Sequence record: PZ452584.1
Length of the DNA stretch: 64,000 bases
Strand: one strand, 5' to 3'
DNA from: a phage
The notes under the pieces were generated by a model. The model made no database searches, was not told the origin of the DNA, and saw nothing but the letters and a program-made list of their open reading frames with translations. Numbering within the stretch: the stretch's first letter is position 1; each line of letters opens with the position of its first letter. Both the position numbers and the translations under genes were made by a program. This document shows, piece by piece, positions 1 to 49,677 of the stretch.

Positions 1-2508
1 TGGATTTCCTTCACGCAATGGAAGAACCATTACTTTATTTCCATCCAAAATTGGAGCTACACCCAGACCACTAACAGCTCGACGATAAGTTAGCACACCA
101 CGAATATGGAACGGGCATTTAAATCCTGGCCAACCTTTATCATCATATTTCGCTATATCGTTCGCAGTTTTTACTTCAGCAATAACTTTATAGTCAAGTT
201 GACGATATTCTTTCTCGAAGTTCTTGTAATATTCTTGGACAGACTCTTCACCTTCCTGAAGAATACGACGAATACTTTCTTCAAGAGCTTCTTGGACCGC
301 TTTAGGCGTTGAACTCTGCTGAGTTTCCATACCCATGATTTTTAGATGCGGTTCAGCAAATCGCTTATCTTCCATATCATAAACGTTCAGAGCATAACGC
401 TTTTTCGCTTTCCAAAATCCACCAACGCCCTTTGAACCAAGTGGAGGGCAAGAAATAGCTTCACGGTCCATATGCATCAGATGCTCGCGGTTATTCATAT
501 AATCACATAACTCACGATATGCAACATCAATCATAGGTTCCATCTTTTTCTTACCGAACTGATTCATGAATTCAACTAAATCGTTCTGCTCTTTGAATCG
601 GTCAAGACCAACTTTTTCAATAACTTTATCTACACAAACATATACCGAATCAGTATCACCTGCTGCGATGAAATCTTCGCCATTAGTTCCGCATACTTTA
701 TTCAGATACTCATTAATTTTACGAGCAATCCACTGAATACCAACTTGACCAAAAATTGTGATAGCAGTAGCATTTCGCAAATCATAGTAACGGAAATGAA
801 TATTACCAAGAGCACCATAAAGACTGTTAATAAGAATTTTACGGTTCAGCTGATTTGTGTTAGCAAGTGTAGCTGCTTTTTCACATTCTTCGATCAGACT
901 ATTAAGAACAGATTCAGTATAATTCGATAGTTCATTTAAGAAATCATCACTGAACTTGACATATCGTTCAACTTCAGGTTTAGTTGAACAAGATCCTGCG
1001 CCTTTCATAATAATCTTTTTAATAGCTTCGGCATTCATTTCTTCAGCGAACATTTTCTTTTTCCAATCTTTACGCTGGAAAAATACTTTAGCGATTTCCT
1101 TTGGAATGATACCTTCTTGATGCTTATCGTACATCCATCCATTCGGAGAACAAGAATATTCATCACTCGGTTTAGGAGCTGTTCCTGCGATATATTCATG
1201 AATTGGATGAACTTTAAACTGACCACGAATAGTCTCAGGACTAATGTTAACCTGACGAATAATGCTCGGATACAGAGACGTCAAGTCAAAACTCATAATA
1301 TATCGACGAGCAATTGGTTTAGGTTCAAACACAAATGCACCCGGAAAACTCTGTTTAACATGCGAACCTTGTTGAGGAATAACTTTATGTTCACCTTTCA
1401 ATGAGTTAAAAATAATAGCATCCCAGGTTTTAATAGGACTCATTACACCAGAAAAAGGCATTTTAGCGTAATAAGACATACTTAAAACTAGATCGATAAA
1501 CCCGCGAATTTTATCAATTGCTTGAACTGATTCTACGTCAATGATGTTATAACTAATGTATCGTTGATGATTAGTCTCACGAAGTTTATTAATAGGACCG
1601 TCGTATGGTAATTTACCTTTTTTGGTTTCGTGTTGAGCAACTGATTCCAATGAGAATGATGGTAAATTAGTAAATGCAAATTTCTTGTACAAATCTAAAT
1701 AATCAAGAATAGATACGCCATCAATAGAATAAATTTCTTTGCTACCGTACATATTTTGGATAAGTTTAGATTTTACTCGACCGATTGGAGAGAAGCGTTT
1801 CATACTACGTTCACCGAGAACCATTTTAACGCGATTCATGATATATGGAACGTCAAATCCCTCAATATTCCAACCAGTAAAAATAGCAGGTCGTTTCTGT
1901 TCCCAAAGATTAATATATTCCATGAGCATATCACGCTCATTATCGAATGGCATATAAATTACTCGGTCAAGAATTTCTTGAGGAACTTCATCACCACCTT
2001 CACAGTCAAGCTTAGCAGCTAACTTTGCATCCCATTTTGATACTGAACCATACATTGAATTCAAAAGGTCGAAAACATAAAAACGATCATCAATTGAATC
2101 GTAATGAGTGATAGCATCAATTTCATATTCAGCTTTCATTGGGTCCGGAAATTTATCACCAGTAACCTCAATGTCACAGTTAGCTACACGAACAAATTTT
2201 CGGTCATAAACAATTTCTGAACCATACGTATCACTGATATAAGCGAGTTTAAAATCGTTCATACCGAGAGCTTCGAGACCGATGTCTTCCATTCGCTTCA
2301 TCCAATCTCGAGCATCTTTCATTGATGGAAATTTTTGAGGAGCGCAATTTTTACCATAGATGTCTTTGTATTTTGACTCTTCCTTACAATGCCTAAACAT
2401 AGTCGGAAGATATTCTACTTCACGAGTACGTTCCTTTCCGTTTTCATCAATATAACGTTCAACAATGTTATTTCCGACTGTTTCAATAGAGATATAAAAT
2501 TCTTTCAT
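1..2508 (-). CDS. 43: DNA polymerase gp43, N-terminal ~836 codons (3' end of gene lies beyond window start)
   Basis: Uninterrupted minus-strand frame 2508->1 (no in-window stop, hence absent from ORF track); starts MKEFYISIETVGNNIV and contains KIMGMETQQSSTPKAVQEALEES, matching T4 DNA polymerase; ATG 2506-2508 preceded by AAGGA SD. Confidence 0.95.
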   Translation of the reverse strand, partial: MKEFYISIETVGNNIVERYIDENGKERTREVEYLPTMFRHCKEESKYKDIYGKNCAPQKFPSMKDARDWMKRMEDIGLEALGMNDFKLAYISDTYGSEIVYDRKFVRVANCDIEVTGDKFPDPMKAEYEIDAITHYDSIDDRFYVFDLLNSMYGSVSKWDAKLAAKLDCEGGDEVPQEILDRVIYMPFDNERDMLMEYINLWEQKRPAIFTGWNIEGFDVPYIMNRVKMVLGERSMKRFSPIGRVKSKLIQNMYGSKEIYSIDGVSILDYLDLYKKFAFTNLPSFSLESVAQHETKKGKLPYDGPINKLRETNHQRYISYNIIDVESVQAIDKIRGFIDLVLSMSYYAKMPFSGVMSPIKTWDAIIFNSLKGEHKVIPQQGSHVKQSFPGAFVFEPKPIARRYIMSFDLTSLYPSIIRQVNISPETIRGQFKVHPIHEYIAGTAPKPSDEYSCSPNGWMYDKHQEGIIPKEIAKVFFQRKDWKKKMFAEEMNAEAIKKIIMKGAGSCSTKPEVERYVKFSDDFLNELSNYTESVLNSLIEECEKAATLANTNQLNRKILINSLYGALGNIHFRYYDLRNATAITIFGQVGIQWIARKINEYLNKVCGTNGEDFIAAGDTDSVYVCVDKVIEKVGLDRFKEQNDLVEFMNQFGKKKMEPMIDVAYRELCDYMNNREHLMHMDREAISCPPLGSKGVGGFWKAKKRYALNVYDMEDKRFAEPHLKIMGMETQQSSTPKAVQEALEESIRRILQEGEESVQEYYKNFEKEYRQLDYKVIAEVKTANDIAKYDDKGWPGFKCPFHIRGVLTYRRAVSGLGVAPILDGNKVMVLPLREGNP

Positions 2509-38800: not shown

Positions 38801-39103
38801 TTATTTACCTTTAATTACTTTAGCTGCTTCGATAGCCGCTTGCTGAAGGTCATCCATAGACATACCGAATTTAGAAGCAAAGTTATCAATTTTCTTTTCG
38901 ACAGCATTCAAAGGCTTGGCCTGTTTACCTTCATTAGCGCCAGGAAGAGCGAGAATACGCTCTTTGTCAATATAAAGGCTTACAAGTTTCTTACGGTCTT
39001 TATCGGACAAATCATGAAATGAATGGGCCTTTTTATTTATAGCGGCTTCTAATTTACCTGCACTCACTCGCGCTTCAGTAATAAATTCTTGATATGTTTT
39101 CAT
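38801..39103 (-). CDS. ipII: internal protein IPII-like (capsid-targeted)
   Basis: 100 aa, N-terminal capsid-targeting sequence MKTYQEFITEA. Confidence 0.75.
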   Translation of the reverse strand: MKTYQEFITEARVSAGKLEAAINKKAHSFHDLSDKDRKKLVSLYIDKERILALPGANEGKQAKPLNAVEKKIDNFASKFGMSMDDLQQAAIEAAKVIKGK

Positions 39104-39144: not shown

Positions 39145-39741
39145 TTAGGAATTACGGGCTGCATTAGCAACGGCGTAAGCGTACTGAACATTAGCGTCTT
39201 TAAACTTACCTTTAGAGGTATCTATTTCTGCCTTAAAGCCACCTTTAGTCATAACATCGGCAAATTCTTTACGGAAAGCCATTGCATCAAGACCTTTCCA
39301 TGATGATTTATGCTTGGCAAATTCAAGACCTGCGAAGTTGACAGCTTTAGCCAATTTATTATCAATGACCCATTTACCGGCTTTAGGCACAAACTTCGGG
39401 CCTTTCTGTTTAGAGAACAGTTTTAAATTCCAGCGGCGAAGGTCACTGTCGGCTTTAACAAAAGCTGCGTCTAAGTTACTAGCAACAACATCTTCAATAT
39501 GAGCAAATTTAAGTCCGTCAACTTCAATATTTAAATCGGTACGCCAGCGAAGTCCTTCCCAAGCGAAGGCTTTAAAGTCGGAAGCCTTTGTAGCTAAGTA
39601 CCGTTCAATAGGAGCTGTTTTAGGGTCAAAGCCGTTTCCTGGGCGGTCAACACCATTTCCTCGGTAGGTCCACTCATCTTTGTTAATGCCTTTGGCCTTT
39701 ACTACAGAAGCTTCGGCAATAAATTCTTGATATGTTTTCAT
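39145..39741 (-). CDS. ipIII: internal protein IPIII-like (capsid-targeted)
   Basis: 198 aa, N-terminal MKTYQEFIAEA capsid-targeting sequence. Confidence 0.75.
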   Translation of the reverse strand: MKTYQEFIAEASVVKAKGINKDEWTYRGNGVDRPGNGFDPKTAPIERYLATKASDFKAFAWEGLRWRTDLNIEVDGLKFAHIEDVVASNLDAAFVKADSDLRRWNLKLFSKQKGPKFVPKAGKWVIDNKLAKAVNFAGLEFAKHKSSWKGLDAMAFRKEFADVMTKGGFKAEIDTSKGKFKDANVQYAYAVANAARNS

Positions 39742-44034: not shown

Positions 44035-44598
44035 TTATTTACCCAGTTTAGTTATTATAGCTTCGGCAGCAGCTTTTAGCTTAGATGCAGTGTTAATACG
44101 ATTTTTAATTTCAGTATACGCATCGCCAAGAACATCAAGGCTGTCAGAATAAACACTTACACTATTGCGTTCGCTATTTGAAATAGAACCTTTAGTTTTA
44201 CGATCAAAATCGGTGTACACGTCTTGAAGATCGCGGGCTGCCTTCTTTGCATCATCCAATGCATCAAGAGCTTTATTCAAAGCATTGACATATTTTTTAG
44301 TGTCAAACATATTCTTAGAAATTTTAACAGGTGCACGTTCAGGAGTAGCTAAGGCAGATTTAGGAACCTGAGCGCCTGATGCTAATTTCTTAGAAATTTT
44401 GAAAAATGCTTTATTGAATTTATTTTCTTGACTCATCGTAAAAGAACTATTATCAATGTTATACATTTCAATAGCTTTAGCTTTCCACTTAAGAAAATCG
44501 CCCCGGTCTTTTGGGTCCAAGTGGAAGAATACTTTAGTAAGATCTGTTTCAGATGGTAATTTTGCTGCTTCGGTTAAAAATTCGGCATAGGTTTTCAT
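44035..44598 (-). CDS. internal-protein-like capsid-targeted protein (187 aa)
   Basis: N-terminal MKTYAEFLTEA resembles IP capsid-targeting sequence; lies upstream of a terminator. Confidence 0.6.
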   Translation of the reverse strand: MKTYAEFLTEAAKLPSETDLTKVFFHLDPKDRGDFLKWKAKAIEMYNIDNSSFTMSQENKFNKAFFKISKKLASGAQVPKSALATPERAPVKISKNMFDTKKYVNALNKALDALDDAKKAARDLQDVYTDFDRKTKGSISNSERNSVSVYSDSLDVLGDAYTEIKNRINTASKLKAAAEAIITKLGK

Positions 44599-45032: not shown

Positions 45033-45109
<77 letters not shown>

Positions 45110-45112
45110 TAA

Positions 45113-45778
45113 TTAAAATTTCATTTTTCGACCTTTAAACCATCCTTCTGGAATTGGGTCAGTTTTCTTAATACGTTTAGAAACTTTTTCATCTAATGAA
45201 TGAATCCACATCATACCAAATTGGGAATTCTTTTCACCTTGTTGGTGTTTATTTCTGGCGTGAGATTCTTTCATTTTATTAATAGTTTCAGGAGTATGGG
45301 TCTTACCCAAGAAAGATTTAGTATTTAAAAATTTCTCTCTATACTTAGGATTATCCCAAAGCTGTTTAAACCTTTCTGAACCCATTTTACGATATTTTTC
45401 TTTAAGGTCTAGGTCGTTCTCAAATCTGGTTTTAAAAGCAGCAGCCCCTTTTAAGGAAGCTTCTTTCTTTTTATCCAAATATTCTTTAGTGTTTAAATGG
45501 TCCCAACCACCTTCACCACCTAATTTCAAATTATAAACATCAGGGCGCTTTAAAAACTCTTCAGTCACAATATTCTTTTCTGACTCAAACATAGAGGTTT
45601 TATCGTCAAAGAACTCTAATATTTCTTTAGAGAAATTTTCTATACCATACTTGTCTTGGGCTCTTTTTAATAATTTACCAGAACCCATATATCCATCATC
45701 TAAATTTTCGGTAGAATGAGCGCCTATATAGATTTTATTATTAATTTTATTTGTTATTTTATAAGTGTAATGGAACAT
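45113..45778 (-). mobile_element. segB: GIY-YIG homing endonuclease SegB
   Basis: 221 aa, N-terminal YTYKITNKINNKIYIGAHS GIY-YIG motif; embedded in tRNA cluster as in T4. Confidence 0.85.
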
Positions 45779-45819
45779 AAATATCTCCTATTTCTAAGAG
45801 TATTTATGTTCCCAAAATA

Positions 45820-45891
45820 TGGCCCTGGGTGGAATTGAACCACCATCTGGCGATTATGAGTCGCTTGCTTGAACCTTCCAGCTACAGGGCC
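45820..45891 (-). tRNA. tRNA-Ile (anticodon CAU; Met by anticodon alone)
   Basis: manual fold: acceptor GGCCCUG/CAGGGCC, anticodon loop CUCAUAA, T arm GGUGG-UUCAAUU-CCACC. Confidence 0.75.
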
Positions 45892-45897
45892 TTGATA

Positions 45898-45970
45898 TGC
45901 TGATTGACGGAATCGAACCGCCGACATCCTCATTACAAGTGAGGTGCTCTACCTACTGAGCTAAATCAGC
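45898..45970 (-). tRNA. tRNA-Thr (anticodon UGU)
   Basis: acceptor GCUGAUU/AAUCAGC, anticodon loop CUUGUAA, T loop GGUUCGAUUCC. Confidence 0.8.
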
Positions 45971-45977
45971 GAAATTA

Positions 45978-46064
45978 CGGAGGCGATAGGATTTGAACCT
46001 ATGAGTCGCCGGAGCGACTGCCGGTTTTCAAGACCGGTGCATTAAACCACTCTGCCACGCCTCC
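45978..46064 (-). tRNA. tRNA-Ser (anticodon UGA), long variable arm
   Basis: acceptor GGAGGCG/CGCCUCC, anticodon loop CUUGAAA, T loop GGUUCAAAUCC. Confidence 0.8.
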
Positions 46065-46066
46065 AG

Positions 46067-46140
46067 TCTCCGCGGCAGGATTTGAACCTGCGACATTCTG
46101 CTCCCAAAGCAGACGCTCTACCAAACTGAGCTACACGGAG
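46067..46140 (-). tRNA. tRNA-Pro (anticodon UGG)
   Basis: acceptor CUCCGUG/CGCGGAG, anticodon loop UUUGGGA, T arm GCAGG-UUCAAAU-CCUGC. Confidence 0.8.
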
Positions 46141-46152
46141 TAAATTAAATTT

Positions 46153-46224
<72 letters not shown>

Positions 46225-46230
46225 AAACTT

Positions 46231-46317
46231 TGGTACGAGAAGTGGGACTCGAACCCACAAGGAAATCATTCCGCAGCATTTTAAGTGCTGTGCCTTTACC
46301 AATTTGACCATTCTCGC
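46231..46317 (-). tRNA. tRNA-Leu (anticodon UAA), CCA encoded
   Basis: acceptor GCGAGAA/UUCUCGU, anticodon loop CUUAAAA, long variable arm, T loop GGGUUCGAGUCCC, 3' ACCA. Confidence 0.8.
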
Positions 46318-46318
46318 G

Positions 46319-46391
46319 CTGGGAATAAAGGACTCGAACCTTTGCATCTAGCAGTCAAAGTGCTATGCCTTACCAACTTGGCTAATTCCCA
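46319..46391 (-). tRNA. tRNA-Gln (anticodon UUG)
   Basis: acceptor UGGGAAU/AUUCCCA, anticodon loop CUUUGAC, T loop GGUUCGAGUCC; abuts tRNA-Leu. Confidence 0.8.
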
Positions 46392-46477: not shown

Positions 46478-46993
46478 TTAAAGCAAATTAAACATTTTAA
46501 CTGCAGGTATTACAATTTCTTTTTCTATATAAGAGCATTTAACACTCTCAACTACACGCAAAAAATCATAATCATAATACTCAGAAGCATTACCTAAAAT
46601 ATTAATAAGTCCTTCAAGCACTTTATTACCATTCACAAAGAATAAGTCAAATACACGTTCTTCGTCTTCTTCGGATTCATTACCAAAGTCAACTTCTATA
46701 TCAAAGACCTTTTTAATGAATTCTGGATAAAGCTGGTCTGAGAACAGTCCTTCAACCAAGTATTCATAAATAAAAAGCGATTGCTCACTGAACAAGCCAT
46801 TACCACAATAACGTTCAACTTTAGTATTAGAATGTCGGCTTTTAAACTTCTTTAAAAGATATTGGAACTGTAAGATTTCATGTTCTTTAATTCCAAATAT
46901 TGATTTAGTTTTATAATTATCACCATCATTTTCCCATGTAGTGACATCAATTACATAACCCTTAGGAATTGTACAGCCTAAACGAATATTCAT
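46478..46993 (-). CDS. hypothetical protein
   Basis: 171-aa ORF upstream of tRNA cluster. Confidence 0.45.
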   Translation of the reverse strand: MNIRLGCTIPKGYVIDVTTWENDGDNYKTKSIFGIKEHEILQFQYLLKKFKSRHSNTKVERYCGNGLFSEQSLFIYEYLVEGLFSDQLYPEFIKKVFDIEVDFGNESEEDEERVFDLFFVNGNKVLEGLINILGNASEYYDYDFLRVVESVKCSYIEKEIVIPAVKMFNLL

Positions 46994-47668: not shown

Positions 47669-47854
47669 CTATTCACCTTTAGAAATTTTATCCATAACGA
47701 TAGCAATTAAACCAATTAAAAATGCTACTACAAGTGAAAACACATTTTCTGCTGTAGTCAATAATCCGCATATAAATCCAACAAACATTGAAAAACTAAA
47801 AGCAGAAGCAGAAATTGCAATAGCAACATTTCGAATTAATTCACAACGTTTCAT
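47669..47854 (-). CDS. small membrane protein
   Basis: 61 aa, two hydrophobic helices; ATG with SD GAGGAG. Confidence 0.45.
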   Translation of the reverse strand: MKRCELIRNVAIAISASAFSFSMFVGFICGLLTTAENVFSLVVAFLIGLIAIVMDKISKGE

Positions 47855-47882
47855 TTTATTCTCCTCAGTAGTTGATAGGGTA

Positions 47883-47912
47883 ATAGTATCACTACTAAAA
47901 CCCTATGTAAAC
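47883..47912 (-). promoter_or_regulatory. sigma70-type early promoter with -10 inside inverted repeat
   Basis: GTTTAC-N18-TACTAT; ATAGGG/CCCTAT arms flank the -10. Confidence 0.5.
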
Positions 47913-47924
47913 AACTTTGTGAAA

Positions 47925-48182
47925 TTATTTTAAATCTTCTAATCGTTTCTTCATCTTAGAACCATTTTTAGCGATTTCTCCTGCATCGGAGCATAATGCT
48001 AAAAGAGCTTTAACTTTAGTTTGGTCTCCTTTAAAAGATGAAGGATCGACTGCAGCAGCAAGTTCTTTAATACGAGAAAAAAGACGCTCAGCTTCAGCTA
48101 AAGCCATTCCAAGTTTTACTTCCATACCGTGGGAAGATTCAGTGATAGTAGTTTTTGTAGCAAACTCTTTGAAAGTTTTCAT
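47925..48182 (-). CDS. internal-protein-like capsid-targeted protein at ipI locus (85 aa)
   Basis: N-terminal MKTFKEFATK resembles IP capsid-targeting sequence; immediately upstream of 57B. Confidence 0.55.
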   Translation of the reverse strand: MKTFKEFATKTTITESSHGMEVKLGMALAEAERLFSRIKELAAAVDPSSFKGDQTKVKALLALCSDAGEIAKNGSKMKKRLEDLK

Positions 48183-48212
48183 TTTATTTTCCTAATTAAT
48201 TTTGATGAGGTA

Positions 48213-48242
48213 ATAGTATCACTACCTCATCAGCATGTAAAC
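48213..48242 (-). promoter_or_regulatory. sigma70-type early promoter with -10 inside 10-bp inverted repeat
   Basis: GTTTAC-N18-TACTAT; arms TGATGAGGTA (48203-48212) / TACCTCATCA (48223-48232). Confidence 0.5.
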
Positions 48243-48254
48243 AACTTTGTGAAA

Positions 48255-48951
<697 letters not shown>

Positions 48952-48952
<1 letters not shown>

Positions 48953-49677
48953 TATAGTACCTTTAGTGTATTTTTAATTTTAGAAAAAAGTTCTTCAAGA
49001 GAACCATCGTTTGTAATTACTAAATCGCCATCACGAATTGGCAATCCAGCTTCTGTAATATGTATATCATTGGATTTTTGACCAGGACGAACTACATGAA
49101 TTACTGTAGCACCCATCGCCCTAGCCGCATCCATTTCATGATCTTGACGGGTATCAGGAACGATATAATAATCATAACCTGAGTTAAATTTATCAAGATA
49201 ATCTAAAGCAAATAATTTTACCCAGTACATGCGGTCGAAGTTATTAACAATCAAATCCGTACCTAGGGCTTGCATCAGACGACGGACTGACCATTGATCT
49301 TCAATATTATTTATAACGTCAGTAATCTTATTAAATGCTACGAAATTAACTGATTCTTTTCCTTCGTCATCAAAAACAAACACACCTTTGATTGGGCTTT
49401 TACCATTAAGATAGCAAAATGCTTGTTCCATAATCGTGATTACTTCTAATTTAGTCAGATTTAAATTAGTCTCACGATCATAGTCAATTCCTTCAAACTC
49501 TTTACGAGTTAAGCAAGGATAGTCAGTGTTTGCTGCAAATACTCCCCATGCATAAGCTAATGCATCCTTAATAGGACCAGCAAGTTGGTATTTAACTGCA
49601 GAATAATTGCTCATGATAAAATCAGCAGTAGTATCTTTTCCACTACGCTTTACACCGCTTAAAAAGATTAGTTTCAT
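48952..49677 (-). CDS. 1: dNMP kinase gp1
   Basis: 241 aa from ATG 49675-49677 (SD GAGGAG); P-loop GVKRSGKD. Confidence 0.9.

Follow-up and report, generated by a model that had tools for sequence, protein, structure and literature searches.

The catalogued internal-protein allele Ip5 in the ipI slot of a T4-like phage: flanking PeSL cassettes, predicted leader cleavage and a proposed anti-defence role

Among the internal proteins of phage T4, Ip1, Ip2 and Ip3 are each active against a single variant of the type IV restriction enzyme GmrSD, and none protects against the target of another (PMC12373910). IPI* blocks the GmrSD of E. coli CT596, and work published in 2025 found that Ip2 blocks that of ECOR21 and Ip3 that of ECOR17 (PMC12373910). 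The leaders of such proteins are removed by the prohead protease gp21, which cuts after L/I-X-E; leader residues 4 and 7 matter in capsid targeting, and residues 8 and 10 matter in the processing of the 10-residue IPIII leader (PMC9026906). An IPIII that lacks its leader is still functional in the cytoplasm (PMC9391042), and the mature form of IPI is 76 residues long (PMC3012670). Further, the promoter-early stem-loops (PeSLs) of phages PST and T4 share the consensus TTTACW-N17-TAYWAT and have been tied to observations made in 1994 on the IP loci (PMC4122927). According to a GenBank record and to later citations, a survey of T-even polymorphism by Repoila et al. named the Ip5 allele in the same year.

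The window, which is the whole stretch of 64,000 nucleotides that was analysed, is a segment of a mosaic Tequatrovirus (T4-like) genome, and its 85-codon gene is, on sequence comparison, almost certainly Ip5, the catalogued alternative allele at the ipI locus of such a phage. An earlier note on this DNA had described an 85-aa ORF beginning with MKTFKEFATK; the ORF is present on the minus strand, with an ATG start and the stated opening residues (Table 1). Its product matches PHROG 3499, 'internal head protein', over positions 1-85 of 85 (E 1.2e-49) and has 100% amino-acid identity to the Ip5 of RB15, deposited in 1994 (CAA84462). The T2 protein is 98.8% identical, with one alanine fewer, and the Ip5 of RB51 is 96.5% identical. 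GenBank labels the counterparts in ime09, RB51, VR26 and ECML-363 as Ip5, with internal head protein also in use elsewhere, and a large protein database has the protein under the name "Ip5", from RB70 and T2. The note had also suggested a comparison with known IP alleles; it returned this named allele, and it returned no function, as no phage paper that characterises Ip5 by name or records its function was found in the searchable literature.

The genes of the window run, on the minus strand, in the order 4, 2, 3, 1, 57A, 57B, ip5, a 61-codon hydrophobic ORF, a 125/139-codon ORF, two small ORFs and the tRNA cluster. The T4 reference has the same order, 57B-ipI-trna.4-trna.3, and ip5 therefore occupies the exact ipI slot, bordered on its right-hand side by trna.4, the conserved edge of the locus. 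The placement of the gene upstream of 57B is correct in plus-strand coordinates only; in the direction of transcription, it lies downstream of 57B and upstream of trna.4. The proposal that it encodes an alternative internal protein at the polymorphic ipI locus stands, based on the shared T4 slot, the promoter cassette, ribosome site and leader of ipI and the Ip5 annotations. Moreover, a 24-kb query around ip5 matches hundreds of T4-like phages of Escherichia, Shigella and Yersinia at about 95% identity; among the matches listed, none is near-identical over the whole query, and the best reach about 95-96%.

Table 1. Positions of ip5, its parts, its flanking cassettes and other features of the window.
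Feature	Position	Strand	Description and basis
ip5 coding sequence	47925..48182	minus	85 codons + stop; ORF list, PHROG 3499, RB15 identity, dN/dS
Ip5 leader/propeptide (predicted), residues 1-15	48138..48182	minus	MKTFKEFATKTTITE; aligns with T4 ipI leader; ends I-T-E; low pLDDT over residues 1-14
Mature Ip5* (predicted), residues 16-85	47928..48137	minus	70 aa, 7.5 kDa, pI 9.2
Upstream PeSL cassette (57B-ip5 spacer)	48183..48254	minus	72 nt; promoter scan, RNA fold, T4 alignment
Early-type promoter, upstream cassette	-35 48241..48236; -10 48218..48213	minus	TTTACA, N17, TACTAT; TG-extended
Hairpin, upstream cassette	48203..48232		13-bp stem; -20.5 kcal/mol, z -4.8
Ribosome site ahead of ip5	48190..48193		AGGA
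Downstream PeSL cassette (ip5-trna.4)	47855..47924	minus	promoter-like site 47911..47883; hairpin 47875..47906, z -3.8
Direct repeat, copy 1	47849..47940	.	trna.4 codons 1-2 through final four ip5 codons (EDLK, stop; 47928..47940)
Direct repeat, copy 2	48177..48270	.	ip5 codons 1-2 through final four 57B codons (DDLK, stop; 48258..48270)
57B (context)	48255..48713	minus	Pfam PF23474 Acb1, E 2.7e-60; directly upstream of ip5 in transcription
trna.4 homologue (context)	47669..47854	minus	61 aa, hydrophobic; PHROG 1692; position as in T4, VR26
171-aa ORF	46478..46993	minus	PHROG 2290, unknown function
tRNA cluster	45036..46391		eight tRNA genes
segB-like gene	45113..45778	minus	GIY-YIG homing endonuclease
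187-aa ORF	44035..44598	minus	10-residue leader and gp21 site; pI 9.5; PHROG 2280
IpII-like ORF	38801..39103		homologue of T4 Ip2
IpIII-like ORF	39145..39741		homologue of T4 Ip3

Several neighbouring genes merit separate mention. The adjacent 57B is the anti-CBASS nuclease Acb1, and most phage records still label it 'RNA ligase' or 'hypothetical'; an anti-CBASS gene therefore adjoins a presumed injected anti-restriction gene, with one PeSL between them. The 171-aa ORF lies between a trna.2-like ORF and the tRNA cluster and, since neither T4 nor ime09 has an equivalent there, it resembles another small insertion in a plastic region. As in T4, the segB-like homing endonuclease gene is located inside the tRNA cluster.

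Both spacers that flank ip5 contain a consensus promoter and a stem-loop repeated around a variable gene, and the palindrome-embedded promoters beside ip5 are the published PeSL cassettes. In the upstream cassette, the early-type promoter is overlapped at its -10 by a hairpin with a 13-bp stem, in agreement with the palindrome-embedded -10 that had been reported from the letters, and an AGGA ribosome site precedes ip5. The downstream hairpin has a stem sequence unlike that of the upstream copy, with its pairing kept, and alignment shows that the downstream cassette is nearly identical to the T4 sequence 3' of ipI. Together with short coding ends, these cassettes form a direct repeat of about 92 nt (D2 + D1) that brackets ip5 as a cassette, where D1 has 69 nt at 86% identity, D2 has 25 nt at 84% identity and the spacing is 328-330 nt. 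Read on the minus strand, each repeat copy contains a TG with TTTACA-N17-TACTAT, a hairpin over the -10, a ribosome site and the codons ATG AAA. As the repeat takes in the last four codons of both 57B and ip5, the recombination joint seems to lie inside the coding ends. The Mosigvirus relatives of Ip5 diverge exactly after ...RLE, and these sequences suggest that the recombination joint set the C-terminal tail of Ip5. The idea that ip5 has a late promoter of its own was considered and rejected: the TATAAATA late promoter is absent from the 72-nt 57B-ip5 spacer, its nearest minus-strand match is inside gene 1 (49308..49315), and its 12 matches in the window compare with 11.3 expected by chance.

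Alignment of the window to T4 shows where the two alleles part. From the end of 57B to the ATG (about 110 columns), there are 2 mismatches and one single-base indel; from the leader to the I-T-E codons, the sequences are similar apart from one 12-nt gap; across the mature part, there is no meaningful similarity; and near-identity is back at the stop codon and in the downstream PeSL. The content of the locus varies among other phages. For example, IME537 has the arrangement 57B-PeSL-ip5-PeSL-second ip gene-PeSL-trna.4, where the second ip gene encodes MKTFKEFINE followed, after the cut, by AADVK..., RB15 carries ip5-ip9-ip7-ip8 before trna.4, VR26 carries ip9-ip5-ip6, and ime09 has ip5 alone at the locus, like the window. 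Overall, the ipI locus is hypervariable through cassette exchange, and the Ip5 protein itself is tightly conserved.

Across 50,697 phage records, a tblastn search found an Ip5 homologue in 497, with 178 at 99% identity or more, 72 at 95-99%, 19 at 80-95% and 228 below 60%. The 178 records with at least 99% identity rule out that ip5 is a fresh or rare variant. Ip5 alleles that are at least 80% identical occur in 269 records, compared with 292 records for IPI*, and the Mosigvirus-type Ip5 occurs in a further 228; Ip5 is therefore a major catalogued alternative and about as common as IPI. An exhaustive HMMER search of 1.84 billion representatives returned three clusters, all of them T-even phage Ip5 types, and a plasmid collection searched with Ip5 gave no match. 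Ip5 is thus confined, within the collections searched, to T-even-type phages.

The Ip5 protein is under strong purifying selection. In particular, ip5 has 6-8 nucleotide differences from the genes of ime09, IME537 and RB15, all of them synonymous (dN/dS 0); for the allele of VR26, a Gaprivervirus (81% amino-acid identity), dN/dS comes to 0.07, and for a homologue from Mosigvirus (47% identity) to 0.24. The full-length match to PHROG 3499, the presence of homologues in hundreds of phage records, the synonymous-only differences and the low dN/dS against VR26 establish that ip5 is a real gene and not a chance ORF. Moreover, the 47%-identical Mosigvirus relative sits at the other of the two classical IP loci, between the lysozyme gene e and denV, and the Ip5 family has therefore moved between two IP loci. 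In the Mosigvirus O157 typing phage 6 (2016..2782), the Ip5-like start at 2501 overlaps the end of e at 2504 by 4 nt, and the gene has no upstream PeSL of its own. In HX01 (1501..1769), the Ip5-like gene is annotated as two fragments of 123 and 99 nt, and this split may reflect a frameshift, pseudogenisation or an error in sequencing.

In the window, an MKT[YF]xEF-type leader motif opens only four ORFs. The IP-type leader that the earlier note had assigned to the gene is present, and it is the longer ipI type, with 15 residues ending in ITE, rather than the canonical 10-residue type of IpII and IpIII. The T4 IPI leader is MKTFKEFTSTTTPVSTITE, followed by ATLT..., and the Ip5 leader is the same with four codons fewer; their first 7 residues (MKTFKEF) are shared. 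The aromatic residues that characterise internal-protein leaders are retained as F4 and F7. Positions 8-10 read A-T-K in Ip5 and T-S-T in T4 IPI, neither of which is an L/I-X-E site; a loss of packaging caused by these deviant positions was considered and rejected, as T4 IPI shares the feature.

The first L/I-X-E in Ip5 is I13-T14-E15, which aligns with ITE17-19 of T4 IPI. Cleavage of T4 IPI after ITE19 is experimentally anchored, since the NMR structure of mature IPI* (PDB 2JUB) spans residues 20-95, starting right after ITE, which agrees with the 76-residue mature form. Further, in alleles of the VR26 type a leader of 10 residues (MKTYQTFMTE in VR26 and MQTYQTFITE in a related database sequence) is joined directly to SSHGMEV. 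From the IPI cut and from this junction, cleavage of Ip5 is predicted between E15 and S16. Packaging of Ip5 and its cleavage at E15 are likely on these alignments; the searchable literature yielded no report that detects Ip5 in virions or shows its processing directly, and no virion proteomics for it.

Another of the four leader-bearing ORFs, 187 aa long, has a canonical 10-residue leader and a gp21 site (MKTYAEFLTE followed by AAKLP...). It adjoins tRNA-Arg and segB, outside both classical IP loci, and belongs to a PHROG of 'unknown function'; 165 phage records carry it, and it is a 'hypothetical protein' in all records listed. This ORF is a candidate for an unannotated injected protein.

The mature part of Ip5 does not resemble the other internal proteins of the window, as had been noticed from the sequence: comparisons with the IpII-like, IpIII-like and 187-aa ORFs, and with Ip7, Ip8 and Ip9 of RB15, gave no significant similarity. 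Comparison with IPI* (2JUB) revealed no homology in sequence or in fold, and Foldseek against the PDB did not return 2JUB. The AlphaFold2 model places helices at residues 15-44, 54-63 and 67-84, with a mean pLDDT of 84 (>90 over residues 21-80) and a pTM of 0.64, from an input alignment of only 7 sequences. According to this model, Ip5 would be a three-helix, all-helical protein unlike IPI*. Foldseek searches with the model gave nothing better than E 6.9 in the PDB, and among viral models the only match was the Ip5 of VR26 itself. A PDB profile search returned designed helical bundles only (E 0.004 or worse), which were rejected as relatives because the matches reflect helical composition and not homology. 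Pfam gave only sub-threshold noise (DUF7890, Paxillin), and PADLOC gave zero matches. The mature protein has 13 Lys + Arg in 70 residues and a net charge of only about +3, and E30, E40, E69, L24, L34 and L61, among others, are invariant in homologues that are only about 40% identical. The invariant residues on the surface are K23, E30, R37, E40, K56, E69, K78 and R80.

The proposed mechanism would proceed as follows. The leader (MKTFKEF...) would carry the Ip5 precursor into the prohead core, where gp21 would cut after I13-T14-E15 and release a basic three-helix protein of 70 residues that would stay in the head and be injected with the DNA. The mature protein would then act stoichiometrically to inhibit a single, specific first-response defence directed at modified T-even DNA. 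Its target would differ from that of IPI and may be a GmrSD variant beyond the published panel or another kind of sensor of modified DNA. Overall, an ip5 allele whose product is packaged, cleaved and injected and inhibits a host defence against modified T-even DNA is the best explanation and is considered probable on this analysis. The anti-defence role itself also appears rather likely; it is argued from analogy and locus only, since searches with the mature domain gave no relative of known function, either in sequence or in fold. That Ip5 targets a defence other than IPI's is plausible and fits the published work on Ip1-3 (PMC12373910). The assignment of that target to a type IV restriction enzyme is tentative, being possible but somewhat less probable than its converse.

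Published observations narrow the candidates. In one study, ip4-10, a range taken here to include ip5, gave no reproducible inhibition across a panel of common enterobacterial GmrSDs, and T2 was restricted by the GmrSD of ECOR21 and ECOR17 (PMC12373910). The deposited genome of T2 carries ip5, yet T2 is restricted; therefore, Ip5 does not neutralise these two GmrSDs. Together with the negative panel, the restriction of T2 points to an unsampled GmrSD variant or to another system as the target.

One version of the anti-defence reading places the target outside the GmrSD type altogether, in another system that senses or attacks early infection or T-even DNA, for example a Brig-type DNA glycosylase, a McrBC-like or other hmC-directed nuclease, or an abortive-infection sensor. 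Ip5 would then be an injected inhibitor of a sensor or nuclease for hmC-type DNA, so far not recognised as a target of internal proteins, that is common to the hosts of Tequatrovirus (glucosyl-hmC) and Mosigvirus (arabinosyl-hmC), acting via a three-helix fold unrelated to that of IPI*. The negative GmrSD panel and the predicted all-helical fold are consistent with such a target, and other defences directed at hmC or glucosyl-hmC exist, such as Brig1 and Brig3-BapA (PMC13160076). Moreover, Ip5 homologues are also found in Mosigvirus, whose type phage RB69 is described as having arabinosyl-hmC and not glucosyl-hmC (PMC6024577), which argues against a target tied to glucose recognition. However, the three internal proteins with known targets (3/3) all act on the GmrSD family, and this family is very diverse; a negative result from a panel of only 15 groups, 8 of them active, is weak evidence (PMC12373910). 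Positive evidence for any alternative target is absent, and a non-GmrSD target, while conceivable, is doubtful.

Two further explanations dispense with a host target for an injected protein. Ip5 could be mainly structural, a small basic polypeptide that neutralises or organises packaged DNA or fills the scaffold core. Its pI and its content of lysine and arginine would suit this role, internal-protein lysines contact DNA phosphates in T4 heads according to solid-state NMR (PMC3012670), and the published GmrSD screen gave no target (PMC12373910). Against it, the net charge is small, acidic and hydrophobic positions are invariant in distant homologues, and the whole fold is under purifying selection, which a generic counter-ion would not need; at the locus, presence or absence and the swapping of cassettes between close relatives follow the pattern of an accessory host-range gene. 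Further, Ip1-3 were long considered structural and all have specific targets (PMC12373910). A purely structural Ip5 is therefore improbable. It is even harder to credit that Ip5 is not packaged at all and remains a cytoplasmic early protein: this would agree with the early-type promoter and the spacer free of a TATAAATA late promoter, and with A8 and K10 at two positions that govern leader processing in IPIII (PMC9026906), but T4 IPI, with T8-S9-T10 after the same first seven residues, is packaged and cut after ITE19, and Ip5 keeps both the targeting residues F4 and F7 and the ITE site. An unpackaged Ip5 is accordingly given very little weight, and packaging, cleavage and injection followed by inhibition of a host defence is the explanation retained here.

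As a sequence feature, ip5 adds nothing new: the gene, the polymorphism of the ipI locus and the flanking PeSL cassettes have all been described already (1994-2014) and are annotated in GenBank. The present analysis adds a leader assigned by sequence to the ipI type instead of the canonical 10-mer, a predicted mature N-terminus at S16, an all-helical model, the boundaries of the cassette and the purifying selection. Ip5 is about as widespread as IPI and strongly constrained, and its three characterised siblings are specific anti-restriction proteins that determine host range. Once found, its target would aid host-range prediction for T4-like phages used in therapy and might bring a further defence variant to light; if it lies outside the GmrSD type, it would expose either a new defence or a new means of inhibiting one.

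Compared with T4 IPI/IPI*, Ip5 shares the slot, near-identical flanking cassettes and ribosome site, a homologous leader ending in ITE, and small size and basic character. In contrast, the mature parts are unrelated; BLASTP aligns residues 1-22 only, the Ip5 leader is 4 residues shorter, and the IPI* fold combines two beta sheets with flanking helices (PMC3012670), as against three predicted helices in Ip5. T4 Ip2 and Ip3 (IPII and IPIII) are likewise internal proteins with a leader, come from the same group of phages and each act on one defence variant (PMC12373910), but they differ from Ip5 in their locus beside the lysozyme gene e, in their 10-residue MKTYQEFI(T/A)E leader and in their unrelated mature sequences. 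The ip5 repeats agree with the described PeSL cassettes in their consensus, their overlapping hairpin and a gene that varies between close relatives (Arbiol et al. 2010; Comeau et al. 2014, PMC4122927). Nothing substantive separates the two, and here the repeat also enters the 3' ends of 57B and ip5 by four codons. The Dar (defence against restriction) proteins of phage P1 act on type I restriction systems. They are described as proteins that are packaged in the head, injected and shield incoming DNA from restriction (PMC12810830), and are analogous to Ip5 in concept, whereas the phage, the proteins and the packaging route are unrelated. The closest counterparts are the Ip5 of RB15, T2 and RB51, which are the same protein at the same locus beside 57B; only the neighbours differ, with four ip genes in RB15 and ip5 alone in the window.
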